A stretch of DNA of 64,000 nt from contig ONSD01000019.1 in the NCBI GenBank assembly GCA_900320385.1, positions 4,444 to 68,443 on the forward strand. Reading direction: 5' to 3'. This DNA comes from an uncultured Bacteroidales bacterium (lineage in GTDB: Bacteria > Bacteroidota > Bacteroidia > Bacteroidales > UBA932). Within the stretch, counting starts at the first letter, position 1, and every line of letters begins with the position of its first letter. This document shows, in pieces, positions 1,516 through 22,639 of the stretch. Under the pieces are notes generated by a model that worked only from the letters and a program-made list of their open reading frames with translations, was not told where the DNA came from and ran no database searches. A program made the position numbers and the translations under genes.

Positions 1516-3288
1516 ATGAAAAAGATACTTGTTATACTCGCGGCCCTGGCCATCATCGGCGGAATGACCGCATGTGAAGACGAACTGAACGTAGTCAACG
1601 TCAACAACCAGACGACATACGACTTCGGCGACGCCCAGGACGAACTGGAAGAAGCCGTCATAGCCTGCTACAACAGGATACGTCTCGAGGGTACCTTCGC
1701 CCGCGTGGGCTACACCATGGATGCCGTCCGCGGCGACGAAGTGTGGAACTCATCGCAGCAGTGGTACCTCCCCTACGACAATTACAATGCTCCGGCCAGC
1801 GACGAAATCGGCAACATGTGGATCTGGCGCGACTGCTACCATGTGGTTAACCGCTGCAACTTCGTGCTGAAGAAGGTGGAAGACGCAAAGCTTTCCGACG
1901 AGGCCTACAATCAGATCAAGGGACAGGCACTGTTCCTCAGGGGCCTCGCCTACTATGAGATAGCCACTTATTATCAGTCCGCCCCGCTCTTCACGGATTA
2001 TTCCCAGTACTCCAGCATGGAGGGGATGTATGCCGAGCAGGCAAGCCTGGACGAACTTATGGACCAGGTGGATTCCGATTTCTCCGAGGCCATGGGCATG
2101 CTCCCTTCGCGCAACAAGGGAGGAGAGTGGGCGAAGGGCCGCGCCACCTGCGGAGCGGCTGCAGGCTATTACGCCCGTTCGCTTATGTTCCGTCACAAAT
2201 ACGACGAAGCCCTCACCGTCCTCAAGGATATCATTTCCGGCAAGTACGGAAGCTACCGCCTCATGGCGGACTATGGCGACAACTTCCGCGAAGGCACCGC
2301 CTATGAGAACAACGACGAAAGCCTCTTCGAGGTGCAGTTCCTCGACTATGGCATGGGCGGATCCGACGAGGAATGGACTCCCGTGAACATCTCGTCCAAC
2401 GCCACCCAGGGCCATGCGGTCGAAAGCAATTACGCTTCGCAGGCTCTCGGCAGCTGGGGCGACCTCGCCGGCGCTCCATGGCTCTACAATCTCTTCAAGG
2501 CTGAAAAGACCACCGACGGCCAGCTCGACCCGAGGCTCTACTGGACTCTGGTAACCTACGAACCCGAATATGATACTTATACCGGGCTCAAGGATGTGGC
2601 TTACCCCGACGGCGACCCGCGCAGCAACGTGGTCTACATGGAAGCCATCAGTTCCACCCCGCGTTCCAACGGCAATCAGGGAGGCATTTCCATCGCCAAG
2701 TTCACCAATGCCCGCAACAACATCTACAGCAGCATCACCACCGGACTGCACTGCGGCGTGAACCTGAGGCTCATGCGCTACAGCGACGTGCTGCTGCGCG
2801 CGGCCGAATGCATCAACGAGGTGAGCGGCCCGAATGCCGAGGCCATAGGCTACATCAACCAGGTGCGCAGGCGTGCCGGGCTCGCCGACATCAGCCTCTC
2901 GGACTTCTCCTCGGCCGACAAGCTCTTCGAGCAGATAGCCAATGTGGAACGCCCGAAGGAATTCGGTTGCGAGAACGGACGCGGCATCGACCTCATCCGC
3001 TGGGGATTCTTCTATGACGAGGGACGCCGGAACCAGCTGGCACAGCATACCAGCTACCACTTCGACGACCCCGACGCAGGAGTGTCAACCGCCGAAGAGA
3101 CCACGGCTACCGCCAGTGACTACTCCATGAAGTACTATACCCCGGGTCATGAGTACTTCATGATCGCCCAGAGCACCATGAACAACAACCAGAGCCTTGT
3201 CGGCAACTCCGCCAACAACAACAGCGACAACAGCTCCTGGTACAGCGGGAACGGCTGGTCCGTGCACCCCGTAGTGGATCTGGACTAA
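1516..3288 (+). CDS. susD: SusD/RagB nutrient-binding lipoprotein
   Basis: Lipoprotein signal (MTAC); SusD motifs GQALFLRGLAY, DPRL, LMRYSDVLLRAAE, INQVRRRAG, ERPKEFGCENGRGIDLIRWG; directly after susC. Confidence 0.95.
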   Translation: MKKILVILAALAIIGGMTACEDELNVVNVNNQTTYDFGDAQDELEEAVIACYNRIRLEGTFARVGYTMDAVRGDEVWNSSQQWYLPYDNYNAPASDEIGNMWIWRDCYHVVNRCNFVLKKVEDAKLSDEAYNQIKGQALFLRGLAYYEIATYYQSAPLFTDYSQYSSMEGMYAEQASLDELMDQVDSDFSEAMGMLPSRNKGGEWAKGRATCGAAAGYYARSLMFRHKYDEALTVLKDIISGKYGSYRLMADYGDNFREGTAYENNDESLFEVQFLDYGMGGSDEEWTPVNISSNATQGHAVESNYASQALGSWGDLAGAPWLYNLFKAEKTTDGQLDPRLYWTLVTYEPEYDTYTGLKDVAYPDGDPRSNVVYMEAISSTPRSNGNQGGISIAKFTNARNNIYSSITTGLHCGVNLRLMRYSDVLLRAAECINEVSGPNAEAIGYINQVRRRAGLADISLSDFSSADKLFEQIANVERPKEFGCENGRGIDLIRWGFFYDEGRRNQLAQHTSYHFDDPDAGVSTAEETTATASDYSMKYYTPGHEYFMIAQSTMNNNQSLVGNSANNNSDNSSWYSGNGWSVHPVVDLD

Positions 3289-3309
3289 TTTGCAAATTAT
3301 TGCTAACTT

Positions 3310-3352
3310 TGTGGAGGCAGGGGCACGCAGCCTCCGCCTCCACATTCTTTTT
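3310..3352 (+). terminator. Hairpin with U-tract after susD (terminator or mRNA-stabilising stem)
   Basis: TGTGGAGGC/GCCTCCACA stem followed by TTCTTTTT, ending just before the GH43 ATG. Confidence 0.6.
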
Positions 3353-3357
3353 GGAAC

Positions 3358-5121
3358 ATGAGATTCTTCAAATATCTTTTCCCCTTCGCCATAGCGGCCG
3401 GCCTTGCCCTTGTTTCCTGCGACAAGGATCCGCAGGAAGGCAGCGGCATCCACACGAAACCGGTGGACGGCGATGAAACAGTCACCCCTTCCACCCAGGA
3501 AAAGAGCGGCTTCACCATGTCGACCGGCTACTGGGCCCCCGCTGTCCGCAAAGTAAACGTGAACGGGGTCGAAAAACTTCGCATGTACTACTGCCTGGTG
3601 CCCTCCAACTGCATAAAGACGGGCTCCCCCGATTTTGACGGCAGCTGGACGGAACGCGCCATCATCGGCATGTGCGAAAGCAGCGATCCGGCCGGAGGCA
3701 GGTGGGAAGACAAGGGATATGTCGTCTGCTCGTCATCCGACAAGGGGCGCGACGGCTATGCCAGGAGCAGCGAAAGCGACTGGAACGCATATTTCTATTA
3801 CAACGCCATCGACCCCACTTATATCGTGAACCCGGCGGGCGACGGCAAGGATTACCTCATCTACGGATCGTGGCACAGCGGCTTCGCCCTCCTGGAGATC
3901 GACCATGTCACCGGCAAGCCCGTGAACGCTCCGGGAGACCCGTGGGCGGGCAGCGCCGCGGAACTCTCTTCCCGCTTCGGGGTGCGCATCGGTACCCGCA
4001 ATTCCAATTCCCGCTGGCAGGGCAGCGAGGCCCCCGAAATCATTTACAAGGACGGTTATTATTATCTGTTCATGGCTTATGACGGCCTGGATGTCCCCTA
4101 CAACACCCGCGTAGTGCGCTCCACAAGCATCGAAGGCCCGTACAAGGACATAACCGGCCGCAATTTCACAAACGGCCGCGGCGACTGCTTCCCCATCGTC
4201 ACCCATCCCTACAAGTTCAGCAAGGGTTACGGCTGGGTGGGCATTTCGCACTGCGCCGTCTTCCCTGAAGAAGGCGGGAGCGAATGGTTCTACATGTCGC
4301 AGGGACGCTTCCCCGTCAACGTGGGGGGCAACGCTTACAGCAACGCCCTCATGATGGGGCACGTGCGCAGGCTGGCATGGGTACCGGCATCTCCCGACAC
4401 ACCTGACGACCTGTGGCCCGTCGCCCTTCCCGAACGCTACGGCGCGGTTCCCCAAAGCCCCGTTTCCAAAGAAGAAATCGCAGGCACCTGGGAGCATATC
4501 AACCTCGGCTACCATTATGCTGCCCAGGACGCATCCGAAGACCTCCTGCTCCTTCCGGACGGCACCATGTCGGGTGCCCTCAACGGCAAGTGGAGTTACG
4601 ACGCCGGCACAGGCCTGCTCACCCTGGACGACAATGCTACTGCCGCACCGGTATGCGTGAAGGTGACACGCGAACTCGACTGGGAAGCATCCCCAAGGGT
4701 GCCGACCCTCGTCTATGCCGGCACCGGGGTCAGCCTCAACGCTACATGGTGGGGCAAGAAGGTGGCGGAGGCCGACGGTTCTGCCATTGCCGCCACGCCG
4801 GGATACACCGCTCCCTCATACAACGACAATTACGTTTCCCTCGCCGCATGGTCGCACCACGACAGCTGGAATCTCGCGAACACCCACGATCCCTCGGTGG
4901 CATACTTCGACGGCTACTATTATGAGTGGGGCACGGACGCCTCCTATGGAAACGCGCATCTCGACGCCGCCAGCGGCAGGCACTTCCCCGGAAAGAGGAG
5001 CCGGAACCTGGTGGACTGGGAATATGTCCCCGGTCCTTTCAACGCCACTCCCCAATGGGCGGCCGACACTCTTAATTCCATACGCAAGCGCATGGGACTC
5101 AAATCGATAGCTAAAGATTAA
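3358..5121 (+). CDS. GH43 endo-1,5-alpha-L-arabinanase-like lipoprotein, circularly permuted
   Basis: Lipobox LVSC. GH43 motifs WAP, NAIDP, YGSWHSG, GSEAP and GISHCAV are followed by the C-terminal domain (..WWGKK). The normally N-terminal WNLANTHDPSV..TDASYGNAH..SRNLVDW block is at the extreme C-terminus. Confidence 0.88.
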   Translation: MRFFKYLFPFAIAAGLALVSCDKDPQEGSGIHTKPVDGDETVTPSTQEKSGFTMSTGYWAPAVRKVNVNGVEKLRMYYCLVPSNCIKTGSPDFDGSWTERAIIGMCESSDPAGGRWEDKGYVVCSSSDKGRDGYARSSESDWNAYFYYNAIDPTYIVNPAGDGKDYLIYGSWHSGFALLEIDHVTGKPVNAPGDPWAGSAAELSSRFGVRIGTRNSNSRWQGSEAPEIIYKDGYYYLFMAYDGLDVPYNTRVVRSTSIEGPYKDITGRNFTNGRGDCFPIVTHPYKFSKGYGWVGISHCAVFPEEGGSEWFYMSQGRFPVNVGGNAYSNALMMGHVRRLAWVPASPDTPDDLWPVALPERYGAVPQSPVSKEEIAGTWEHINLGYHYAAQDASEDLLLLPDGTMSGALNGKWSYDAGTGLLTLDDNATAAPVCVKVTRELDWEASPRVPTLVYAGTGVSLNATWWGKKVAEADGSAIAATPGYTAPSYNDNYVSLAAWSHHDSWNLANTHDPSVAYFDGYYYEWGTDASYGNAHLDAASGRHFPGKRSRNLVDWEYVPGPFNATPQWAADTLNSIRKRMGLKSIAKD

Positions 5122-5134
5122 AAAGATATCCAGA

Positions 5135-7075
5135 ATGAAAAACCTGACCTCTCTCATAGCAGCGGCCCTGTTGGCGGCGGCATGTTCGCAGCCCGCGCAT
5201 ATTTTCGAGATAGCCGCCGACAAACCGGGAGCCGAAATCCAGTCCACGATGTACGGCGTCTTCTTCGAGGACATCAACTTCGGAGCCGACGGCGGCCTTT
5301 ATGCCGACATGGTGAAGAACCGTTCTTTCGAGTTCCCGAATGCCTTCATGGGATGGGAGACTTTCGGCAACGTGGAACTGCGTACCGGCGGGCCTTTCCC
5401 GCGCAACCCGCACTATGTCCACCTCGGCTATTCCGGGCACAGCGACAAATTCTCCGGACTCGAGAACGAAGGATTCTTCGGGATGGGCCTCAAGGAAGGG
5501 GCTAAATATGACTTTTCGGTATATGCCCGCGGAACGGGATCGCTTCGCGTCGCCTTCGTGGACGACGACACCATGGAGGAACGCCAGATGTTCGCCGAAG
5601 ACACCCTGTTCGTCTCCGACCCCGCCTGGAAGAAATACACCCTTGCCATAGAATCTCCCCTTACCATCCAGGACGCGCACCTGCGCCTCACCCTCATAGG
5701 TGACGGTTCCCTCGACATAGAGCACGTTTCGCTCTTCCCGCAGGACAGCTGGAACGGACTGCGCGCCGACCTGGTGAAGGCGCTGGAAGACCTGAAGCCC
5801 GGCGTGTTCCGCTTCCCCGGCGGCTGCATAGTGGAAGGAGCCGAACTCTCTACCCGCTATCAGTGGAAGAACAGCGTGGGCCCGGTGGAGAACCGGCCGC
5901 TGAACGAGAACCGCTGGCATTATACCTTCGATTACAAATTGTTCCCCGACTATTTCCAGAGCTACGGACTCGGATTCTACGAGTATTTCCTGCTCTGCGA
6001 GCATCTGGGAGCCGAACCCCTGCCGGTCATCAGCTGCGGCCTGGCCTGCCAGTTCCAGAACTGGGACAAGCCCGAAGCGCACGTTCCCGTAAAGGACCTT
6101 GGGCCCTACATCCAGGACGCCCTCGACCTGGTCGAATTCGCTAACGGCGCCGTCACCACGAAGTGGGGCAAGGTCCGCGCCGACATGGGTCATCCGGAGC
6201 CTTTCGGCATGAAGTACCTCGCCGTGGGCAACGAGCAGTGGGACTATCTGTATCCCGAGCGCCTCGTCCCCTTCGTGGAAGCGCTCCGCGAAGCCTATCC
6301 CGACCTCAAGATAATAGGCACGTCCGGTCCCGATTCCGAAGGCAAGCAGTTCGAATACCTCTGGCCCGAAATGCGAAGGATAGGGGTCGACCTCGTGGAC
6401 GAGCACTTCTACCGTCCCGAGAGCTGGTTCCTCGCCGAGGGCACCCGCTATGACGATTATCCCCGCGAAGGCCCCAAGGTGTTCGCCGGCGAATATGCAT
6501 GCCACGGCAAAGGCAAGAAGTGGAACCACTTCGAAGCCTCCCTGCTCGAGGCCGCGTTCATGACCGATATCGAGCGTAACGCCGACATAGTGCACATGGC
6601 CACCTACGCACCCCTCTTCGCCCATGTGAAGGGATGGCAGTGGAGGCCGGACCTCATCTGGTTCGACAATCTCGAGACAGTGCGCAGCTGCAGCTATTAC
6701 GTGCAGCAGCTCTACTCCCTCAACAAGGGCACCAACGTGCTGTCCCTCACAATGGACGGCAAGCCCGTGGCCGGGCTCGAAGGCCAGGACGGCCTCTTCG
6801 CCTCGGCCGTATGTGATTCCGGAACCGGAGAGGTGATAGTGAAGATAGCCAACACATCTGCCGAAGCCCAGACCGTCAGGCTGGAATTCAGCGGGGTGAG
6901 CCTCGGTGCAGGCAAGCTTTTCAGCCTTCATTCCGACGACCCCGATGCAGACAACAGCCTCGAAGAACCCTGCAAGGTGGTTCCGGTAGAATCGGCAGTG
7001 AAAGCCAGCGGCAGCAGCCTCGATGCAAAGGTGCCCGCACAGACATTCCAGGTATACAGGATTCCAGTAAAATAA
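5135..7075 (+). CDS. GH51 alpha-L-arabinofuranosidase (lipoprotein signal)
   Basis: YGVFFEDINFGADGGLYA, RFPGGC, GNEQW (acid/base), DEHFY, GEYA (nucleophile), ATYAPLF, WRPDLIWFD. Confidence 0.93.
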   Translation: MKNLTSLIAAALLAAACSQPAHIFEIAADKPGAEIQSTMYGVFFEDINFGADGGLYADMVKNRSFEFPNAFMGWETFGNVELRTGGPFPRNPHYVHLGYSGHSDKFSGLENEGFFGMGLKEGAKYDFSVYARGTGSLRVAFVDDDTMEERQMFAEDTLFVSDPAWKKYTLAIESPLTIQDAHLRLTLIGDGSLDIEHVSLFPQDSWNGLRADLVKALEDLKPGVFRFPGGCIVEGAELSTRYQWKNSVGPVENRPLNENRWHYTFDYKLFPDYFQSYGLGFYEYFLLCEHLGAEPLPVISCGLACQFQNWDKPEAHVPVKDLGPYIQDALDLVEFANGAVTTKWGKVRADMGHPEPFGMKYLAVGNEQWDYLYPERLVPFVEALREAYPDLKIIGTSGPDSEGKQFEYLWPEMRRIGVDLVDEHFYRPESWFLAEGTRYDDYPREGPKVFAGEYACHGKGKKWNHFEASLLEAAFMTDIERNADIVHMATYAPLFAHVKGWQWRPDLIWFDNLETVRSCSYYVQQLYSLNKGTNVLSLTMDGKPVAGLEGQDGLFASAVCDSGTGEVIVKIANTSAEAQTVRLEFSGVSLGAGKLFSLHSDDPDADNSLEEPCKVVPVESAVKASGSSLDAKVPAQTFQVYRIPVK

Positions 7076-7082
7076 AAAAAAT

Positions 7083-9167
7083 ATGGGAAAGTACGATTGG
7101 AAATACGCCAACGTGGGAGGAGCCTCCCGCGTGCTGATCAGGACGGGCGAAGACATCGCCCATCTCGCAGAACTCGACCGCAAGCAGTGGACGGTGCTCA
7201 GCTGCCCGGTCAAGGGCCTTGAATTCGATTCCAGGACCCTTCAACTGCTCGATTCCGACGGAGACGGCCACATACATGTAGACGAAGTGATAGCCGTTTC
7301 GCAGTGGCTCAGCGCCGCCCTCAAGGATCCGGGCATACTCCTCAAAGGCGAGGGAACCCTCGCCCTCGACGCACTTTCCGACAGCGAAGAAGGTGAAAAA
7401 CTGCGCAAATCGGCCCTCCAGATCCTCGGGAACCTCGGAGCGGAAGACTTGAGCACCATCTCGATCGAGCAGACTTCGGACCTGGCGAAGATCTTTGCCG
7501 GAAGCCGTTTCAACGGCGACGGGGTCATCACCCCCACCAGCGCCGAAGACGAGGACCTCAAGGCCCTGATAGGCAAGATTGCCGAGATCAGCGGAGGTGC
7601 TGACGACCGTTCAGGAGAAAAGGGTGTGAACGCCGAACAGATCGAAGCATTCTACACCGCTTGCAGCGACTATGCCGCGTGGAAGGCCGCCGCAGGCAAG
7701 GACACACTCCCCTACGGAGAATCCACCGCAGCCGCCATGGATGCATGCAACGCACTCGCCGACAAGATCGCCGACTTCTTCATGCGCTGCAAGCTCATAG
7801 CCTTCGATTCCGAAGCCGCCCCGGCTGTTGACGTGGATATAGAAAAGATCAAGGCCATAGGAGGAGAAGACCTTTCCGGCAGTTCCGAAAAGATAGCTGC
7901 CCATCCGCTTGCGAGACCTACCGCCGAAGGGCTGCTGCCCCTGGACGGCAGCATCAACCCCGCCTGGCAGGGTGCTTTCGCAAGCCTCAAGGAACTTGTC
8001 TTCGATAAGGATTTCAAGGACAGGAAGGCCATCAGCGAAGCCGACTGGAATACAGTACTCGGCAAGTTCAGCACCTACAAGGAGTGGCTGGGCGCCAAAA
8101 AGGGTGCAGAGGTAGAAGCGCTGGGGCTCGACGAAATCAAAGCCATACTCAAGGCCGACAGGAAGGCAGCCCTAATGGAACTTGTCGAGAGTGACAAGGC
8201 CCTGGAAAGCGAGGCTCTCGGCATCGAAGCCGTGGACAAGCTCCTGCATTACTGCCGCGACTTCTATTCGTTCCTTTGCAACTACGTAGTATTCAGCGAC
8301 TTCTACGATTCCGACAAGAAGGCCGTCTTCCAGGCCGGCAAGCTCTATGTCGACCAACGCTGCTGCGAACTCTGCGTAAGCGTGGACGACATGGGACGTC
8401 ATGCAGACATGCCGGCTCACAGCGGCATGTTCCTCATCTACTGCGACTGCAAATCCAAGCTGGACGGCAGCAAGCGCACCATCGTGGCGGCCGTTACCAA
8501 GGGCAGCATCGACGGCCTGATCCCCGGCAAGAACGGCGTTTTCTACGACCGCGACGGTCTCGACTACGACGCTACCATCACCAAGGTCGTGGATAATCCC
8601 ATCAGTGTGCTCCAGGCATTCTGGTCGCCCTACCGCAAGTTCGGCAAATGGATTTCAGAACGCTTCGGCAAGAAGGCCGCCGACAAGGAAGCCGCAGGAT
8701 TCGATACCATGACCGCCAAGGCTGCTGAAGCCCCCGTACCGGGCGCAGCAGCTGCTCCGGCCGCTCCCAAGTCCTCTTTCGACATCGCCAAGTTCGCCGG
8801 CATATTCGCCGCCATAGGCATGGCCATCGCCTATCTGTCGCAAGCACTCGTCGCCCTGGCCAGGGGAGCATCCAATGCAGGCTGGCTCAAGGTCCTTCTG
8901 GTGATCGCAGCCATCATGCTGGTCATCTCCCTGCCCTCCATGATCCTCGCATGGATCAAGTTGCGCAAGCGCGACGTTGGCCCGGTGCTCAACGCCAACG
9001 GCTGGGCCATCAACGCCCGCTCGTACGTAAGGCCGCGTTTCGGCAAGACCCTGACCAGCGTAGCCAAGTACCCGAAAGTCAAGAAGTCGGGCCGCGGAAC
9101 GGTCATCCTCATCGTCGTCCTGCTCCTGATCCTCGCACTTCTCGCGGTGTACTATTTCTTCCTTTAA
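7083..9167 (+). CDS. Hypothetical EF-hand-containing protein with C-terminal transmembrane helices
   Basis: Canonical 12-residue EF-hand loop DSDGDGHIHVDE at 7251-7286; no signal peptide; three hydrophobic segments near the C-terminus. Confidence 0.8.
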   Translation: MGKYDWKYANVGGASRVLIRTGEDIAHLAELDRKQWTVLSCPVKGLEFDSRTLQLLDSDGDGHIHVDEVIAVSQWLSAALKDPGILLKGEGTLALDALSDSEEGEKLRKSALQILGNLGAEDLSTISIEQTSDLAKIFAGSRFNGDGVITPTSAEDEDLKALIGKIAEISGGADDRSGEKGVNAEQIEAFYTACSDYAAWKAAAGKDTLPYGESTAAAMDACNALADKIADFFMRCKLIAFDSEAAPAVDVDIEKIKAIGGEDLSGSSEKIAAHPLARPTAEGLLPLDGSINPAWQGAFASLKELVFDKDFKDRKAISEADWNTVLGKFSTYKEWLGAKKGAEVEALGLDEIKAILKADRKAALMELVESDKALESEALGIEAVDKLLHYCRDFYSFLCNYVVFSDFYDSDKKAVFQAGKLYVDQRCCELCVSVDDMGRHADMPAHSGMFLIYCDCKSKLDGSKRTIVAAVTKGSIDGLIPGKNGVFYDRDGLDYDATITKVVDNPISVLQAFWSPYRKFGKWISERFGKKAADKEAAGFDTMTAKAAEAPVPGAAAAPAAPKSSFDIAKFAGIFAAIGMAIAYLSQALVALARGASNAGWLKVLLVIAAIMLVISLPSMILAWIKLRKRDVGPVLNANGWAINARSYVRPRFGKTLTSVAKYPKVKKSGRGTVILIVVLLLILALLAVYYFFL

Positions 9168-11853: not shown

Positions 11854-14800
11854 ATGACATTCAAAGAATACAAGGGACTGGATTTGGTAGATGTAGGGAA
11901 CAGGGTACTGCACCATTGGCAGGAGATCCATGCCTTCGAGAAGAGCGTGGAACTGAGGCAGGGAGCACCTGAGTTCATATTCTTTGAAGGTCCGCCGTCG
12001 GCCAACGGCAAACCGGGCATCCATCATGTCATGGCGCGCTCCATCAAGGACGCCGTCTGCCGCTACAAGACGCAGACCGGTTACCAGGTGCGCCGCCGTG
12101 CAGGATGGGACACCCACGGGCTCCCCGTCGAAATAGGCGTCGAGAAGAAGCTCGGCATCCACAAGGAGGACATAGGTACGCGCATCAGCGTGGAAGAATA
12201 CAACGCCACCTGCCGTTCGGAAGTGATGAAATACACCGCCGAATGGGAGAACCTTACCGAAAGGGTCGGCTACTGGGTGGACATGAAAGACCCGTACATC
12301 ACCTATGACAACCGCTATATCGAAACCCTCTGGTATCTGCTGAAGGACATCTACGACAAGGGACTTCTCTACAAGGGATATTCGATTCAGCCTTTCAGCC
12401 CGTCCGACGGCACCGGCCTCAGCAGCCACGAGCTCAACCAGCCCGGCTGCTACAAAGACGTTACCGACACCACCTGCACCGTGCAGTTCGAGATGGTTCC
12501 GGACGATGCCCACAAGGCCCTCTTCGCCGACGGCCCCCTCTTCTTCATAGCATGGACCACCACTCCGTGGACCCTTCCCAGCAACATGGCGCTCTGCGTC
12601 GGGCCAAAGATCGACTACGTGCGCGTGAAGGCGGCCAATCCCTACAGCTCGGAGCCGGCAGTGTACCTGGTAGCCCAGGCTTTGGTAGAAACCTGGTTCG
12701 GGAAGATCCCGCACGAAGTGCTCCCCGGCATCGTCAAGGGCTCTGAACTCACCGGGCTGCATTACAAGCAGCTTATCCCCTGGTTCAAATCGGCCCAGGC
12801 GGGCAAGGCCTTCGAAGTAATAAGCGGAGACTATGTAACCACCGAGGAAGGAACCGGCATCGTGCACATCGCCGGCACCTTCGGCGCCGACGACAAGCGC
12901 GTGAGCGAGCAGAACGGGATCGCAGCCATGATGGTCCTCGACAAGGCCGGTGTACGCCAGGCCCAGGTGGACCGCGAAGGCCGCTTCTACCGCCTCGAAG
13001 ACCTCGACCCGCAGTATGTCAAGGACTGCGTCGATCCCTCTTACGCCGCGTTTGCCGGCCGTTATGTGAAGAATGCGTTCGACGACACGCTTCCCTCCGA
13101 CGCCCCCACCCTCGACGTGGACCTCTGCGTCATGCTCAAGCAGGAGGGCAAGGCCTTCAGGATACAGAAGCACGTGCACAGCTACCCCCACAGCTGGCGC
13201 ACCGACAAGCCGGTGCTCTATTATCCGCTGGACGCCTGGTTCATCAAGACTACCGCCGTCAAGGACAAGATGGTGGAACTCAACAAACAGATCAGCTGGA
13301 AGCCGGAATCCACCGGTACCGGCAGGTTCGGACAGTGGCTGGAGAACATCCAGGACTGGAACCTCAGCCGCAGCCGTTTCTGGGGCACCCCCCTGCCGAT
13401 TTGGCGTACCGAAGACGGCCGGGAGGAAATCTGCATCGGCAGCGTAAAACAGTTCTTCAACGAGATCGACAAGGCCGTGGAAGCCGGTATCATGCCGTCC
13501 AACCCGCTAAGGGACAAGGGCTTCGACCCTGAAGACATGAGCCTCGCCAACTACGACAGGATAGATCTCCACAGGCCGTATGTCGACAATATCTTCCTCG
13601 TAAGCCCCAGCGGCAAGAAGATGACCCGCGAGACCGACCTCATCGACGTATGGTTCGATTCCGGATCCATGCCCTATGCCCAGACGGGCCTGCGCGGACT
13701 CGCTTCCCCCGATTTCGGCGTAACCGCCGACTTCATCGCCGAAGGCGTCGACCAGACCCGCGGCTGGTTCTACACCCTGCATGCCATCCATACCATGGTG
13801 AGCGGGACCCCGGCTTTCAAGAGGGTAATCTCCAACGGCCTCGTGCTCGACAAGGACGGCAACAAGATGAGCAAGCGTCTCGGCAATGCCGTCGATCCTT
13901 TCCTCGAGCTGGACAAATACGGCGCGGACGCCCTCCGCTGGTACATGCTCACCAACGCCCAGCCCTGGGACAACCTCCGCTTCGACGAACTGGGAGTGGA
14001 TGAGGTGCGCCGCAAATTCTTCGGAACCCTCTACAACACATATTCCTTCTTCGCACTGTACGCCAACGTGGACGGTTTCGATCCCGCCGGCGCCAGGCAT
14101 ATCCCGTATTCCGACAGGCCGGAAATCGACCGCTGGATAATCTCCAGGCTCAACACCCTCATCGACGAGGTGCGCTCCGCCTACGAAGACTACGACATCA
14201 CCCTGGCAGGCCGCCTGATCCAGGACTTCGTGTGCGACCACGTATCCAACTGGTACGTCCGCCTCAACCGCAAGCGTTTCTGGGGCGGAGAACTCTCCGC
14301 GGACAAACTGGCCGCTTACGAAACCCTCTATGAGGTGCTCAGGGACGTTGCCGTGCTCATGGCGCCCATCGCCCCGTTCTACAGCGACCAGCTTTACAGG
14401 GACCTCGTTCCGGCGGCGGAAAGCGTACACTTCACCCTCATGCCCGAGAGCAACCATGTCCTGGTGGACAAGGACCTCGAAGAACGCATGGAACTCGCCC
14501 AGAAAGCCACTTCGCTCGTCCTAGCGCTCCGCCGCAAGGTCAACATCAAGGTGCGCCAGCCCCTCAGCAAGCTGGTTATCCCGGTGCTCTCCGACAAGGT
14601 GCGTTCCCAGTTCGAACAGGTCAAGGACCTCATACTCGGCGAAGTGAACGTCAAGGAGGCCGAATTCATTACCGATACGACCGGAATCATCACCAAGAAG
14701 ATAAAACCGAATTTCCGCTCGCTGGGAAAGAAATACGGCCCGCGAATGAAGGAAATCGCCGCCGCATTCGCTAAACTGGACCAGGCCACCATTTCCGCCA

Positions 14801-15636
14801 TACAGAGCGCCGGCAACTACAGCCTGCAACTCGACGGCGGGGCCGTGGACCTCGCTCCCGAAGACTACGAGATCAGTTCAGAGGATATGCCGGGATGGTT
14901 CGTAGCTACCGAAGGCCAGCTGACCATAGCGCTCGACGTGGAAGTCAGCGATGCACTGCGTGCCGAAGGCGTCGCCCGCGAACTCATCAACCGTATACAG
15001 AACCTGCGCAAGGACAGCGGTTTCGAACTTACCGACAAGATAGCCGTGACAATTTGTGCCGACGGTGCAGCGTATGACGAGATCGCGGCATCTTTGCAGC
15101 AGTACAAGGATTATATCTGCGCCCAGACACTTGCCCTGGCGCTCGACCTCCGCAAGGGAGGGGACGCCGGCCGCGAGGTGGACTGGGATGAAGGAACCAT
15201 CAGGATAGAAGTAAACAAAACAGATTCCATAACTATGACAGAAGAGACCAAAACCCGTTATACCGACGAAGAACTCGCCGAGTTCCGCGTCATTATCGAG
15301 GGTATGCTCGAAAAGGCAAGGGCCGAGTACGACACCCTCCGCAAGGTGGTGATGCACGGTGGCAACAATGACATCGAGGACACTTCGCCCACTTTCAAGA
15401 CCGTCGAGGACGACGGTGCCAACCAGCTTACCAAGGAGGAAGCCAGCCAGCTCGCTCAGAGGCAGTACAAGTTCATCAAGAACCTGGAAGCCGCCCTCGT
15501 ACGCATCGAGAACAAGACATACGGCATCTGCCGCGTCACCGGAAAGCTGATCCCGAAGGAGAGGCTACGCCTGGTGCCGCACGCCACCCTCACGGTAGAG
15601 GCTAAGGAGATGCTTGCAAAACAGGGCAAGAACTGA
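11854..15636 (+). CDS. ileS: Isoleucine--tRNA ligase (type 2) with in-frame C-terminal DksA/TraR-family domain
   Basis: GPPSANGKPGIHH, GWDTHGLP, WTTTPWTL, DWNLSRSRFWG, EGVDQTRGWF, KMSKR. There is no stop before the DksA-like region starting at 15235. Confidence 0.93.
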   Translation: MTFKEYKGLDLVDVGNRVLHHWQEIHAFEKSVELRQGAPEFIFFEGPPSANGKPGIHHVMARSIKDAVCRYKTQTGYQVRRRAGWDTHGLPVEIGVEKKLGIHKEDIGTRISVEEYNATCRSEVMKYTAEWENLTERVGYWVDMKDPYITYDNRYIETLWYLLKDIYDKGLLYKGYSIQPFSPSDGTGLSSHELNQPGCYKDVTDTTCTVQFEMVPDDAHKALFADGPLFFIAWTTTPWTLPSNMALCVGPKIDYVRVKAANPYSSEPAVYLVAQALVETWFGKIPHEVLPGIVKGSELTGLHYKQLIPWFKSAQAGKAFEVISGDYVTTEEGTGIVHIAGTFGADDKRVSEQNGIAAMMVLDKAGVRQAQVDREGRFYRLEDLDPQYVKDCVDPSYAAFAGRYVKNAFDDTLPSDAPTLDVDLCVMLKQEGKAFRIQKHVHSYPHSWRTDKPVLYYPLDAWFIKTTAVKDKMVELNKQISWKPESTGTGRFGQWLENIQDWNLSRSRFWGTPLPIWRTEDGREEICIGSVKQFFNEIDKAVEAGIMPSNPLRDKGFDPEDMSLANYDRIDLHRPYVDNIFLVSPSGKKMTRETDLIDVWFDSGSMPYAQTGLRGLASPDFGVTADFIAEGVDQTRGWFYTLHAIHTMVSGTPAFKRVISNGLVLDKDGNKMSKRLGNAVDPFLELDKYGADALRWYMLTNAQPWDNLRFDELGVDEVRRKFFGTLYNTYSFFALYANVDGFDPAGARHIPYSDRPEIDRWIISRLNTLIDEVRSAYEDYDITLAGRLIQDFVCDHVSNWYVRLNRKRFWGGELSADKLAAYETLYEVLRDVAVLMAPIAPFYSDQLYRDLVPAAESVHFTLMPESNHVLVDKDLEERMELAQKATSLVLALRRKVNIKVRQPLSKLVIPVLSDKVRSQFEQVKDLILGEVNVKEAEFITDTTGIITKKIKPNFRSLGKKYGPRMKEIAAAFAKLDQATISAIQSAGNYSLQLDGGAVDLAPEDYEISSEDMPGWFVATEGQLTIALDVEVSDALRAEGVARELINRIQNLRKDSGFELTDKIAVTICADGAAYDEIAASLQQYKDYICAQTLALALDLRKGGDAGREVDWDEGTIRIEVNKTDSITMTEETKTRYTDEELAEFRVIIEGMLEKARAEYDTLRKVVMHGGNNDIEDTSPTFKTVEDDGANQLTKEEASQLAQRQYKFIKNLEAALVRIENKTYGICRVTGKLIPKERLRLVPHATLTVEAKEMLAKQGKN
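15235..15636 (+). CDS. DksA/TraR-family transcription factor (in frame with ileS; may also initiate independently)
   Basis: TRYTDEELAEFR, RQYKFIKNLEAALVRIENKTYGICRVTGKLIPKERLRLVPHATL (Bacteroidetes DksA-like, single Cys); ileS-dksA-lspA order. Confidence 0.85.
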   Translation: MTEETKTRYTDEELAEFRVIIEGMLEKARAEYDTLRKVVMHGGNNDIEDTSPTFKTVEDDGANQLTKEEASQLAQRQYKFIKNLEAALVRIENKTYGICRVTGKLIPKERLRLVPHATLTVEAKEMLAKQGKN

Positions 15637-16225: not shown

Positions 16226-16255
16226 AAAAAAGCTCCGGCGCAGGCCGGAGCTTTT
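16226..16255. terminator. Bidirectional rho-independent terminator
   Basis: AAAAA AGCTCCGGC gcag GCCGGAGCT TTT between convergent genes. Confidence 0.85.
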
Positions 16256-16274: not shown

Positions 16275-17783
16275 TCAGTCGGCCTGGGCGTACTGCTTTG
16301 CGAGCTCCTCGGGCATCTGGCCAAGGACTTCGAAGTAGGGAACTCCGTCAACCACCGTAGTACGGTAGATGGTGTCGTCCACTTTGTAGTAGTCATTGCC
16401 GTCCGAGAGGGTGACGTTGTCATAGTCGTCCGGGAGGGCCTTGATGAGGGCTCCTGCGGGAGGAACGATGACCTTGTACTGGCTGTCGCTTCCCTTGGTG
16501 AAGAAAACGCCGTCGTCGTAGTAGTACTCGGTATTGGCCGCTGCGAAACTCTGCACGAGGCCGAGTTTGTTCGCGAGCTCATACGAAGCTGCACTCTTGA
16601 GGGCGTTCAGGTCTACCGAGGGGGCAGCTGCCTGTGCCTGGGCGGCCTGAGCCGCCTGCTGGGCAGCCGCAGTAGCGTTGTTCGCTGCGATCGTGGCGTT
16701 CTGCGCCGCGATGGTCGCATTGTTCTCCGCTATGATGCGGTTCTGCTCCTGGATGGTGTCGTAGTTCCTGTCCACAACCCGGTACGTACGGTACACGTTG
16801 TTGTAGTAGGCGAAGCGGAGCACATCCAGCTCCAGGTCGTAAAGGGCTATGTCAAAGAGCACTCCGAAGGGAGGTCTGCAGATGATATAGTGTCCGAGGT
16901 AATATCTATAATATATGTCATTATAGATGAAGTAGTCGATTCCCCAGTATCTTACGCGCCTGTAATAGGGCAGGTAGCGTACACGGTATCCGAAGAAGTG
17001 CGGATCGCGGCCGAAGAAGCGGCCCGGACGGTCGTATGCCATGAAGTCCCTGTGACGGGGCGGTATACGGTCGCCGCGGTTGTCGAAGCGAACCTGTCCG
17101 GCGGGGCCGGCGGTCTGCCTGTCGTAACTGCGTCCGGCGTTGTAACCGCGGTCGGCAGCCTGGTTGTTGCCGGGCCTGGCGGCATTGCGGCTTTCGTCGC
17201 TTCTGCTCGCAGAAGCACGGCTGGAAGTGCCGCTTGCGCTGGTGCCGGAGCTGCGGGATACACCCGAGCTGGCGCGGCTGCTGGTGCTGCCCGACGAACG
17301 GCTTGCAGTTGAACCGGAGCTGCGGGTAGAATTAGCCGAAGAACCGTTGACCGTGGTGCCGCGGGTGCGGGAAGAGGAAGAATTGTTCACGACAGTGCCG
17401 GAAGAGCGGGTGGAACTGCTGCCGCTGGAGCGGCTGACGGTACCTCCGCGTGCGCGGGTGGTCGTCTGCTGGCCGTAAGAGCCGGCGGAACGGCTTACGC
17501 TGCCGCTGGAACGGGTAGAAGAACTGCTCGAACGGCTCACGCTGCCGCTGGAACGGGTGGCTGCGGATCCCGAAGAACGGGAGACCGAAGATCCCGAAGA
17601 ACGGGAGACCGAAGATCCCGAAGAACGGGTCGAACTGCCGGAAGAGCGGGAAACGCTTGTAGTTCCGCGAGAACTACTTCCACCGCCACGACTCGAACGC
17701 GACTGAGCGCTGACATCTGCCGATGAGAGAGCGAGTGCAACTGCTGCTGCAGCAGTGATCGCGATTTTGAAAATGGTTCTCAT
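16275..17783 (-). CDS. Secreted protein with long Ser/Arg/Gly low-complexity region and Tyr-rich C-terminal domains (DUF6515-like)
   Basis: Signal peptide; about 170 aa of SRSSGS-type repeats; Y-rich motifs YYYDDGVFF and VIVPPAGALIKALP; NATIAA heptads. Confidence 0.75.
   Translation of the reverse strand: MRTIFKIAITAAAAVALALSSADVSAQSRSSRGGGSSSRGTTSVSRSSGSSTRSSGSSVSRSSGSSVSRSSGSAATRSSGSVSRSSSSSTRSSGSVSRSAGSYGQQTTTRARGGTVSRSSGSSSTRSSGTVVNNSSSSRTRGTTVNGSSANSTRSSGSTASRSSGSTSSRASSGVSRSSGTSASGTSSRASASRSDESRNAARPGNNQAADRGYNAGRSYDRQTAGPAGQVRFDNRGDRIPPRHRDFMAYDRPGRFFGRDPHFFGYRVRYLPYYRRVRYWGIDYFIYNDIYYRYYLGHYIICRPPFGVLFDIALYDLELDVLRFAYYNNVYRTYRVVDRNYDTIQEQNRIIAENNATIAAQNATIAANNATAAAQQAAQAAQAQAAAPSVDLNALKSAASYELANKLGLVQSFAAANTEYYYDDGVFFTKGSDSQYKVIVPPAGALIKALPDDYDNVTLSDGNDYYKVDDTIYRTTVVDGVPYFEVLGQMPEELAKQYAQAD
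17566..17629. repeat. 24-bp in-frame tandem repeat (about 2.7 copies)
   Basis: GATCCCGAAGAACGGGAGACCGAA twice plus a partial copy; encodes SVSRSSGS on the minus strand. Confidence 0.9.
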
Positions 17784-20527: not shown

Positions 20528-22639
20528 CTATTTCCGCTTTTCTGGAACCGGGGAATGCATGGTGTCGGGAACCTCGCTTCCTCTGTAGTAGTGCGAGAGT
20601 ATCTCCCGGCAGCTGTAGCCTTTTTCAGCCATCACGGCCGCGCCGATCTGGCACAGTCCCACGCCGTGGCCCCAGCCCTTACCGTGCAGGATGCATACGT
20701 CGCCGCGCCATTCCACCTCAAATGCGGAACTCTTCAAATGACTGGTACTCAAGGCATGGCGTATGTTCAGTTCCTTGCCTATGGTCGCCGAGGCCTTGCT
20801 GCCGAGTATCTTCAGGTACTTGATCCTGCCGGACGCTCCCCTTTCCACCGGCACAAGGTCCCGTATGGTTCCGAAGTCGATGCCGGTGCGTTCCTTCACC
20901 AGGGCGGAGAGTTCGTCGCGGCTGTAACGTACCTCCCAGCGGTAGAAATCTTCGGTGATCAGGTCGTAATCGTTCAGGACGGTAGCGAGCAGCCGCTTGT
21001 CGGCCGTATGGCAGAAAGGATCTGCCCCAGCGGCAGGAGCATCCTCAACTGGCTGCAGATAAGGCACATCCGTATCTTCCCAACAGGTAGGGAAACTCTC
21101 CGTCATGCCGCCGCAGCACTTGGAATAGCGTGCGTCGCAGATTTCGCCCTTGTACATCAGCATCTGTCCCCAGGTCTGGTCGATCGCGTTGCGCACGCTG
21201 CTCCCTATCTCTTCCGTAATGCCCTGGTAGCGCTGGCAATGGTCGTCGGCGCATACGTCATAAGTCCCGTGACGGCCAAGATTGTTCATCACCCATGAAC
21301 GGGAGATGATGGCGTGCGCCTTCAGGAACTCCAGCGGCGCGGTGGCGCGCATCTCCGAAGAGATTACGCTCAGCAGGTAGTCTTCGACGCCTATGGTATT
21401 GATAGCCCGTATCTTGTCGCCTTCGACCACGAAGCGCAGGCGTCCGGCGAATTTGCGGGTGAGCTTGCGTTCCCAGTGGAAATCGATGCCTATTGTGACT
21501 CCGTGAAGTATGAAAGTTGGTTCCGCGAAGAGGGTGGAACGGGTCACGGCATCGAATGTGAGGTCGTCGTAAAGCGAACCGTTGTAATTGATGCGGCCAT
21601 CGTACCAACTCACCTTCTGCGGACCTGCACCGTCGGAAATGATCTCGAACACGATTTCGGGGGCGGCCATGATGCCCACGTCCACAAGGGGTTGCGTACG
21701 GGTGAGGCGCCAGGCAACCATCTGTTCATCTTCGGCCGAGATGGACACTTCATCCACCATTGAAGCGAGCATGGGGGCGCTGATCTTGCGGAAATCCTCT
21801 TCCTTGGGCGCGATGAAGAAACCGGCCATGTCGGCTGCGCCCGGACTCATCGTGAGGTGCTCGGGGCCTTCGGCGGTATAGTGGTGCGAACGCAGGTTGG
21901 AGCGGAGCACGACAGCGGTGCGGAATTCGCCGTTCTTGTACCAGCAGAAGCAGTTGAAGCGGGGCTCGTTCTCGCCTTCGTGGCGCGGGGAGCATTCGAG
22001 CAGGCGGTAGAAGAGCTTGGCCATCGACTTCTGCGTGGTGGATTTGAGCACGTACACCCCCCTGGCGAAGCGGGGGTATTTGTAGAGACTTGCGTCCTGC
22101 GCGGTTGCGAGGAGGTTCTCCGGGTTGTCCAGGAATGCATCGGCGTCCTTCTCGAGGGGCAGTATCCCTCTCGGGCAGGCCTGGAAATGAAGATGGTCGG
22201 GTGCCGAAGCTCCGCTGCACGGGCCGTTGTAGAATACCGTGAAGTCGGGATACATCCTGCTGAACAACAGCATGTCCGGCAGATGATGCCAGATGGTCTG
22301 CGGCAGGTGTTCGCTGCGCACTACAACAAGATGGTTGCGTGTAACGGGGTACGGGTTCACCTGTATGCGGTAGGTGCGGCCCTTCTTGCCCTCGTACATT
22401 ATGTGGAACTGCTCCTTGGGGCGGTATTCGGTGCAGAGGAAGCATTTGCGGGCGGCCAGGCTCTCCGGGTCCACCTCGGCGGTGGAGGAAGCGATGCGGC
22501 AGGGATTGAACTGCACGCTCACTTGCAGTCCGCCTATATCGAAATGCTTGTATTCGGCTGCCTTGACGGCGCGGAAGTTGGCGGCGGCAAGGGGCCATAC
22601 CGACAATTGATCGCCTATGAATTTATCGATTTCGCTCAT
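20528..22639 (-). CDS. DUF4922 (HIT/GalT-like) fused to a SpoIID/LytB lytic transglycosylase domain
   Basis: N-terminal half: QFNPCRIASS, CFLC, NPYP, FYNG..GASAPDHLHFQ. C-terminal half: VEDYLLSVISSEM, LKAHAIISRS, DVCADDHCQRYQG, GWGHGVGLCQ. Confidence 0.88.
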   Translation of the reverse strand: MSEIDKFIGDQLSVWPLAAANFRAVKAAEYKHFDIGGLQVSVQFNPCRIASSTAEVDPESLAARKCFLCTEYRPKEQFHIMYEGKKGRTYRIQVNPYPVTRNHLVVVRSEHLPQTIWHHLPDMLLFSRMYPDFTVFYNGPCSGASAPDHLHFQACPRGILPLEKDADAFLDNPENLLATAQDASLYKYPRFARGVYVLKSTTQKSMAKLFYRLLECSPRHEGENEPRFNCFCWYKNGEFRTAVVLRSNLRSHHYTAEGPEHLTMSPGAADMAGFFIAPKEEDFRKISAPMLASMVDEVSISAEDEQMVAWRLTRTQPLVDVGIMAAPEIVFEIISDGAGPQKVSWYDGRINYNGSLYDDLTFDAVTRSTLFAEPTFILHGVTIGIDFHWERKLTRKFAGRLRFVVEGDKIRAINTIGVEDYLLSVISSEMRATAPLEFLKAHAIISRSWVMNNLGRHGTYDVCADDHCQRYQGITEEIGSSVRNAIDQTWGQMLMYKGEICDARYSKCCGGMTESFPTCWEDTDVPYLQPVEDAPAAGADPFCHTADKRLLATVLNDYDLITEDFYRWEVRYSRDELSALVKERTGIDFGTIRDLVPVERGASGRIKYLKILGSKASATIGKELNIRHALSTSHLKSSAFEVEWRGDVCILHGKGWGHGVGLCQIGAAVMAEKGYSCREILSHYYRGSEVPDTMHSPVPEKRK

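Follow-up and report, generated by a model that had tools for sequence, protein, structure and literature searches.

DksA-family proteins act in the RNA polymerase secondary channel during the stringent response. In Bacteroidetes, ileS, dksA/traR and lspA are usually separate adjacent genes. This usual gene order, which the preliminary description of the locus had given, holds in hundreds of genomes of Bacteroidota, in which the order and spacing of the conserved ileS-dksA-lspA operon are alike. In the window, which is the whole stretch of 64,000 nucleotides analysed here (uncultured Bacteroidales bacterium, contig ONSD01000019.1), in contrast, the ileS stop codon is lost and the first two genes of the operon form one ORF.

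The closest described counterpart of the synthetase part is P. megaterium IleRS2 (8C8V/8C8W), a member of the GXHH subclade. It has the same fold with INS and ARD3, the KMSKR motif, the anticodon residues and GXHH, but the window protein adds a whole DksA-family protein behind ARD3. The DksA part shares the CxxT-x17-TxxA motif, and a coiled coil with a disordered tip, with Chlamydia trachomatis DksA (6PTG) and Rhodobacter RSP2654, and Chlamydia dksA is also located upstream of lspA, as in the window. Unlike these C1 DksA proteins, the window module is fused to IleRS, and its tip is not DxxDxA, unlike those of RSP2654 and E. coli DksA. Domains appended to IleRS are already known: NCBIfam ileS_w_GNAT (NF040702) carries an extra module, as does eukaryotic IARS1 with UNE-I (7WRS), indicating that IleRS accepts additions. 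The window appendage differs from these: an intact neighbour gene that brings its own start and codes for a member of a transcription-factor family, it has been gained often and at shallow depth. In Lys-rich-tailed Bacteroidota DksA, the DksA domain is likewise C-terminal in a longer protein, but the N-terminal partner in the window is a folded 1120-aa essential enzyme and not a low-complexity tail. A preprint on the remodelling of the IleRS C-terminus reports domain exchange and loss, with no mention of DksA or fusions (10.64898/2026.02.03.703510). Nothing relevant on an IleRS-DksA fusion or on the ileS-dksA-lspA operon, and no account of any aminoacyl-tRNA synthetase linked to a factor of RNA polymerase, was found in the literature searched, which covered a minority of subscription journals.

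The fused ORF and its two modules

The translated window contains a single 1260-aa ORF without an internal stop on the plus strand (11854-15636), which carries Pfam tRNA-synt_1, Anticodon_1, DUF5915 and zf-dskA_traR. The junction residues are IRIEVNK-TDSIT-MTEET, and the dksA ATG is at 15235. The ORF, the junction and the Pfam domains thus agree with the preliminary description, in which ileS lacks a stop and continues in frame into a DksA-like domain to give 1260 aa. The features of the locus are as follows.

11854 to 15636, plus strand: fused ileS-dksA, 1260 aa; the same product occurs in independent assemblies
11854 to 15219, plus strand: IleRS module, type 2, residues 1-1122, from TIGR00392 and PDB matches
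12016 to 12027, plus strand: class I signature GIHH (GXHH type), non-canonical, invariant across 40 relatives
13864 to 13878, plus strand: KMSKR signature motif, K671-R675 invariant
14998 to 15012, plus strand: anticodon-reading residues of ARD3 (Q1049, R1052, K1053), invariant
15134 to 15136, plus strand: CCC run, of which one C is missing in two conspecific assemblies (L037, L038)
15210 to 15237, plus strand: predicted internal initiation region and dksA ATG (Met1128), from the start score and the lack of predicted structure
15220 to 15234, plus strand: linker TDSIT, five codons of formerly intergenic DNA, which varies between fused lineages
15235 to 15636, plus strand: DksA/TraR-family module, 133 aa, from PF01258, 6PTG and the modelled coiled-coil helices
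15361 to 15420, plus strand: coiled-coil tip loop without canonical DxxDxA, with an acidic residue at the D74-equivalent spacing
15529 to 15603, plus strand: one-cysteine zinc-free motif CxxT-x17-TxxA, as defined in PMC9126822
15646 to 16206, plus strand: lspA, lipoprotein signal peptidase II (PF01252), the separate third gene of the operon, which starts 9 nt downstream of the fused-ORF stop
16228 to 16255, no strand assigned: terminator-like hairpin in the gap that separates lspA from the convergent gene, listed for the minus strand; a consensus match only

The IleRS module scores 968 bits against TIGR00392 (ileS equivalog; cut-off 621), and P. megaterium IleRS2 (8c8w/8c8v) gives its best PDB matches. 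It is the sole IleRS found in the genome; the other tblastn match is 22% identical and is probably ValRS. GIHH and KMSKR are invariant among 40 aligned Bacteroidota relatives, and GXHH in IleRS2 has been linked to mupirocin hyper-resistance in the enzymes tested (10.1101/2023.01.31.526100). The C-terminal INS/ARD3 region is present and the IleRS1 zinc-binding domain is absent, as indicated by the DUF5915 match and by the alignment of the model with 8C8V/8C9D (~385 columns, rmsd 3.1). Judging from motif spacing, Q1049, R1052 and K1053 probably correspond to Q961, R964 and K965 of the P. megaterium enzyme. Polymorphic codons of the IleRS region comprise 62 synonymous and 9 replacement codons. 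This purifying selection and the single copy suggest that tRNA-Ile is charged by an IleRS that bears a DksA tail.

The DksA module scores 34.2 bits against PF01258 (gathering cut-off 24.9), and its closest solved relative is Chlamydia DksA (6PTG, E 5e-12). It has a single cysteine and therefore no four-cysteine zinc finger, and C99-x-x-T102, 17 residues and T120-x-x-A123 conform to the zinc-free C1 DksA motif, CxxS/T-x17-C/S/TxxA (PMC9126822). It falls below the cut-offs of the dksA equivalogs TIGR02420 (48 versus 115.5 bits) and NF033459 (45 versus 105). DxxDxA at the coiled-coil tip is an indicator of E. coli-like function (PMC4010833). By spacing to the first Cys, the window module has TxxDxG at this position, like Chlamydia DksA, which does not complement E. 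coli dksA (PMC9126822). A DxxDxS sequence is located 10 residues earlier in the tip loop and might substitute for DxxDxA. Tests of RNA polymerase binding by this Bacteroidota DksA subfamily, or of its action with ppGpp, were not found in the papers searched. The module likely acts on RNA polymerase.

A second, stand-alone DksA-like gene is present in the same genome (G000, contig C117, ~7768-8124, minus strand), directly behind a probable GNAT acetyltransferase gene. Its product is 48% identical to the DksA module, with Asp in place of the single Cys. This paralog is not seen in ten other fused genomes, in which no DksA beyond the fused copy was found, so that a need of fused genomes for a back-up paralog is unsupported.

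According to an AlphaFold2 model of residues 740-1260 (pLDDT 80), the anticodon, INS and ARD3 domains of IleRS2 are followed by the coiled coil of DksA, whose tip is disordered. The helices of the DksA part lie at model residues 399-431, 455-481 and 509-517. The linker, at about residues 1125-1134, is of low confidence (pLDDT < 50). Foldseek matches the IleRS part to P. megaterium IleRS2 with E 3e-30 and the DksA part to 1TJL, 4IJJ and 6PTG, weakly, with E 0.006-0.06 for the 521-aa query. Complex prediction for the C-terminal part of IleRS and DksA gives a score of 0.00, which speaks neither for nor against a complex. The model suggests that the fusion protein consists of two modules joined by a flexible linker. 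A tether at the DksA N-terminus is plausible by analogy, because many Bacteroidota DksA proteins have Lys/Ala/Pro-rich, histone-H1-like N-terminal tails of 110-340 aa (P0205-P0276) and because E. coli DksA can do without its first 18 residues (PMC4010833).

Three other loci were noted elsewhere in the window. A DUF4922-SpoIID/LytB fusion of 703 aa (20528-22639, minus strand) lies upstream of an AmpG-like MFS transporter and NamZ; its full-length frame is open in three of the five congeners tested, and it looks ordinary for the genus. A 502-aa ORF (16275-17783, minus strand) has a long Ser/Arg-rich low-complexity N-terminus and DUF6515, and gene callers give ~255 aa for it in conspecific contigs. 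A conserved 694-aa protein without a Pfam match (7083-9167, plus strand) has, by eye, EF-hand-like motifs and C-terminal membrane helices.

The fusion within the species and proposed initiation at Met1128

An AAAA run is present at 15217-15220 and an out-of-frame TAA at 15230-15232, within the linker, as had been described. Removal of one A from this run places a stop 2 nt ahead of the ATG, a spacing that occurs in relatives, and an error of 1 nt had therefore been regarded as plausible. However, the junction DNA between the final IleRS codons and the ATG, including AAAA, is identical in eight other conspecific assemblies, whose genes differ from those of the window by 29-57 SNPs. Records of the 1260-aa product comprise six alleles from 15 contigs, with 0-8 residues different from the window protein, and two further partial proteins of the same 12-member protein cluster also cross the junction. 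An extra A introduced by sequencing or assembly has a negligible probability, because the same junction is found in assemblies with different SNP haplotypes and the full-length product is found on 15 contigs. The fusion is genuine. It is nearly fixed within the species, eight of the ten junction-spanning proteins recorded for the species being fused. The close IleRS matches are named Ca. Cryptobacteroides, and most of the named relatives come from ruminant gut samples; the species is probably a rumen member of Ca. Cryptobacteroides.

In two of these eight conspecific assemblies, which lack one C at 15134-15136 (L037 and L038), a 1117-aa IleRS with a scrambled tail is encoded (gene 3001-6354) and dksA is separate again. 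The deletion replaces the last 28 conserved IleRS residues, which form the terminal strands of ARD3, and such a loss is surprising in an essential single-copy enzyme. This un-fusing frameshift is probably a real derived haplotype, because L037 and L038 differ from each other by 10 SNPs over 9.3 kb.

The locus is best explained, with fair probability, as a real read-through fusion of operon neighbours that is tolerated but not required, with DksA as a passenger tail and as a free protein initiated at Met1128. The ileS stop is lost, and the ORF continues through a five-codon linker of formerly intergenic DNA into an intact dksA. Ribosomes that start at ileS would produce a 1260-aa protein, so that all IleRS would carry DksA as a tail on a flexible tether, and initiation at Met1128 would produce free 133-aa DksA. 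Because one mRNA would thus give both IleRS-DksA and free DksA, neither function would be lost.

Bacteroidetes initiate translation without Shine-Dalgarno sequences, aided by an A in position −3 and by weak structure (PMC6847099). The A/T-rich initiation context pointed out in the preliminary description is indeed kept. At the junction ATG, positions −3 and −6 are A and no RNA structure is predicted, and this ATG scores 9.2 bits, above 99.9% of the internal ATGs of the genome and second only to Met1 within the fused ORF, by a start-site model whose training set was crude ORF calls and whose score reflects mostly A/T richness. An ATG is retained at each of the 19 distinct fused junctions that were scored in the genus, 17 of which have A at −3. 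The median start score is slightly lower for fused junctions than for separate ones (9.2 versus 10.6, p 0.04, with related genomes not independent), and the A/T-rich context could be a relic; both points count against the preferred explanation. Searches for an internal dksA promoter, a weak test, gave neither a sigma-70-like site on the plus strand upstream and close to the junction nor, within the 3.8 kb that flank it, a Bacteroides −7 box.

Fusions without an internal start occur outside the genus. In P0051 (21 members), a Pro/Ala linker offers nothing better than weakly scoring GTGs, and near the junction of P0058/P0059 there is neither ATG nor GTG. The conserved DksA residues persist in these fusions, and DksA must function tethered or be cut out in these lineages. 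Start-less IleRS-DksA fusions were noted at loci L232, L233, L235 and L236 (P0051, P0059), and P0057-P0060 in addition have a shorter final IleRS hairpin. In the P0057 cluster, fused-Met, fused-Val and separate alleles exist side by side at > 90% identity (L238/P0163, L234/P0057), and the separate P0163 allele has an overlapping stop and start. The start-less forms with conserved DksA residues also count against a fusion that is only tolerated. It is very improbable that internal initiation is lacking in the window species as well, such that the fusion is the sole source of DksA, which acts tethered or freed by proteolysis while the C117 paralog covers the free function. The start-less fusions of other lineages, the paralog and the disordered linker of the model fit such an arrangement, but the junction ATG is unstructured and the second-best start, and the other fused genomes with no paralog do not fit it.

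Origins, frequency and persistence of the fusion

A draw of 400 genomes of the genus gave 374 junction matches, and fused frames were each checked by translation. At least 19 of the 374 congeners, including G000, are fused (~5%). This 5% is a minimum, since a further 273 matches of lower strength are outside the listing. Two genomes that a long shared frame had suggested to be fused, G039 and G050, contain stops. A genome with both fused and unfused ileS-dksA loci was also noted (G197; L131, L192), which is probably bin contamination (5%). In a protein search, ~44 clusters contain IleRS and DksA, some with 20-150 members; nearly all full-length members listed are fused, and their names include Prevotella sp. 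and Bacteroidaceae. The fusion is rarer outside the genus, because G000 is the only fused genome among 19 strong matches of an order-wide draw of 300 genomes, the other 18 being separate. Public records of fused genomes say just isoleucine--tRNA ligase, and dksA is therefore hidden from annotation in these genomes.

About 10 separate fusion events are shown for the genus, and further ones for other Bacteroidota. Trees of the C-terminal half of IleRS together with DksA give 10 separate fused groups, and a 49-row tree requires 10 changes, with the window grouped with four unfused relatives (support 96). The nearest relatives of the window are ~80% identical with different spacers, and the nearest IleRS relatives listed (<= 77%, residues 700-1122) are unfused. 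A single ancestral fusion followed by many losses is rejected: one fused clade gives p-AU 5.7e-9, and the linkers of fused lineages are unlike in length and sequence. The junction of one fused clade (clade A) has one additional nucleotide relative to all ten unfused neighbours, and in other fused clades the in-frame stop is lost or indels compensate. The preliminary description had proposed a recent stop loss as an alternative. The stop is indeed lost, but the fusion is more than a private recent event, because it arose repeatedly and, in some lineages, has no internal start.

The ileS-dksA gap has a median of ~12 nt in the genus versus mostly 18-170 nt in other Bacteroidales, and 16 of 24 unfused congeners are one step from fusion (nine by one stop substitution, seven by one indel). 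The fusion recurs probably because the gap is short and one mutation suffices in most species of the genus, because the IleRS2 C-terminus and the DksA N-terminus accept appendages, and because Bacteroidota initiate at A-rich unstructured sites without Shine-Dalgarno sequences. Stop loss is usually resisted, we infer, because most one-step junctions should have fused at these divergences if fusion were neutral. The A-rich ileS stop may also be retained because it contributes to the start region of dksA. If the fusion is tolerated, weak selection against it would keep its frequency near 5%; once fixed, it could persist, and loss of the internal start would make it obligatory in a few lineages.

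An alternative in which the stop loss is slightly harmful, was fixed by drift and is now being purged, with the frameshift haplotype as a selected escape, is quite unlikely. It would account for the ~5% of fused junctions when two thirds are one mutation away, for an un-fusing deletion common to two strains despite the replaced end of IleRS, and for the resemblance of the separate P0163 allele to a +1 revertant. Quick reversion would then be expected, yet clade A has stayed fused over dS > 1, and eight of the ten recorded proteins of the window species that cross the junction are fused.

Clade A comprises at least five species with IleRS dS ~0.8-1.7. The DksA module is strongly conserved after fusion, because DksA dN is 0.00-0.02 in this clade. 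Clades B-D have dS of 0.3-0.7, and in clade C the linkers differ at 12 of 27 bases, at approximately the synonymous rate. Both modules are under purifying selection. The fusion is inherited across species in these multi-species clades, and the window's own lineage is one species. No stop has been regained in the four multi-species fused clades, versus ~2.3-2.5 regains expected (P ~0.08-0.10) under a rough, sampling-sensitive model. This is a weak hint of maintenance, which counts against a fusion that is merely tolerated.

Selection for a physical link, in which IleRS, depending on Ile or tRNA-Ile status, sequesters DksA or delivers it to RNA polymerase, or in which a 1:1 ratio is kept, is rather unlikely as an explanation of the locus. 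Repeated fusion may be read as a Rosetta-stone sign of an IleRS-DksA partnership behind the conserved operon, with 10 or more origins within one genus and others beyond it, survival of the fusion over dS 1.0-1.7 with nearly unchanged DksA, four clades without stop regain (P ~0.09), start-less fusions, one with a Pro/Ala linker, and 10 fused genomes with the fused copy as the only DksA found. Among at least 120 longer DksA proteins, IleRS fusions also dominate the close matches listed, and DksA-LspA occurs once, although its rarity is expected anyway, because free DksA would vanish and be tied to the membrane. Against a selected link, ~95% of congeners and the 18 other matches of the order-wide draw are separate, the linkers share neither length nor sequence, un-fused alleles segregate in the species and in the P0057 cluster, and the tip is without DxxDxA, the most similar solved DksA having failed to complement E. 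coli (PMC9126822). Coupling is only a proposal, because the module is zinc-free, has one cysteine and lacks the canonical DxxDxA tip. Of the interpretation given in the preliminary description, the fusion, the domains, the gene order and the start context stand, and the coupling of charging to transcription is without direct support.

Implications for Bacteroidota

The fusion and its relatives provide a natural series of stages, from separate genes, through genes that are one mutation away and fused genes with an internal start, to polymorphic and start-less fused genes, and this series makes the birth of a gene fusion testable. A bolder reading, that gut Bacteroidota have repeatedly evolved a bifunctional IleRS-DksA, obligatory in some, in which the synthetase gates a secondary-channel factor by Ile/tRNA-Ile status, is unlikely; if true, aminoacylation would be linked to transcription independently of the ribosome. 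The start-less lineages imply that Bacteroidota DksA either can work while attached to a 125-kDa enzyme or is released from it by cleavage, and these forms bear on the role of DksA in the phylum and on the reason for the conservation of ileS-dksA-lspA.
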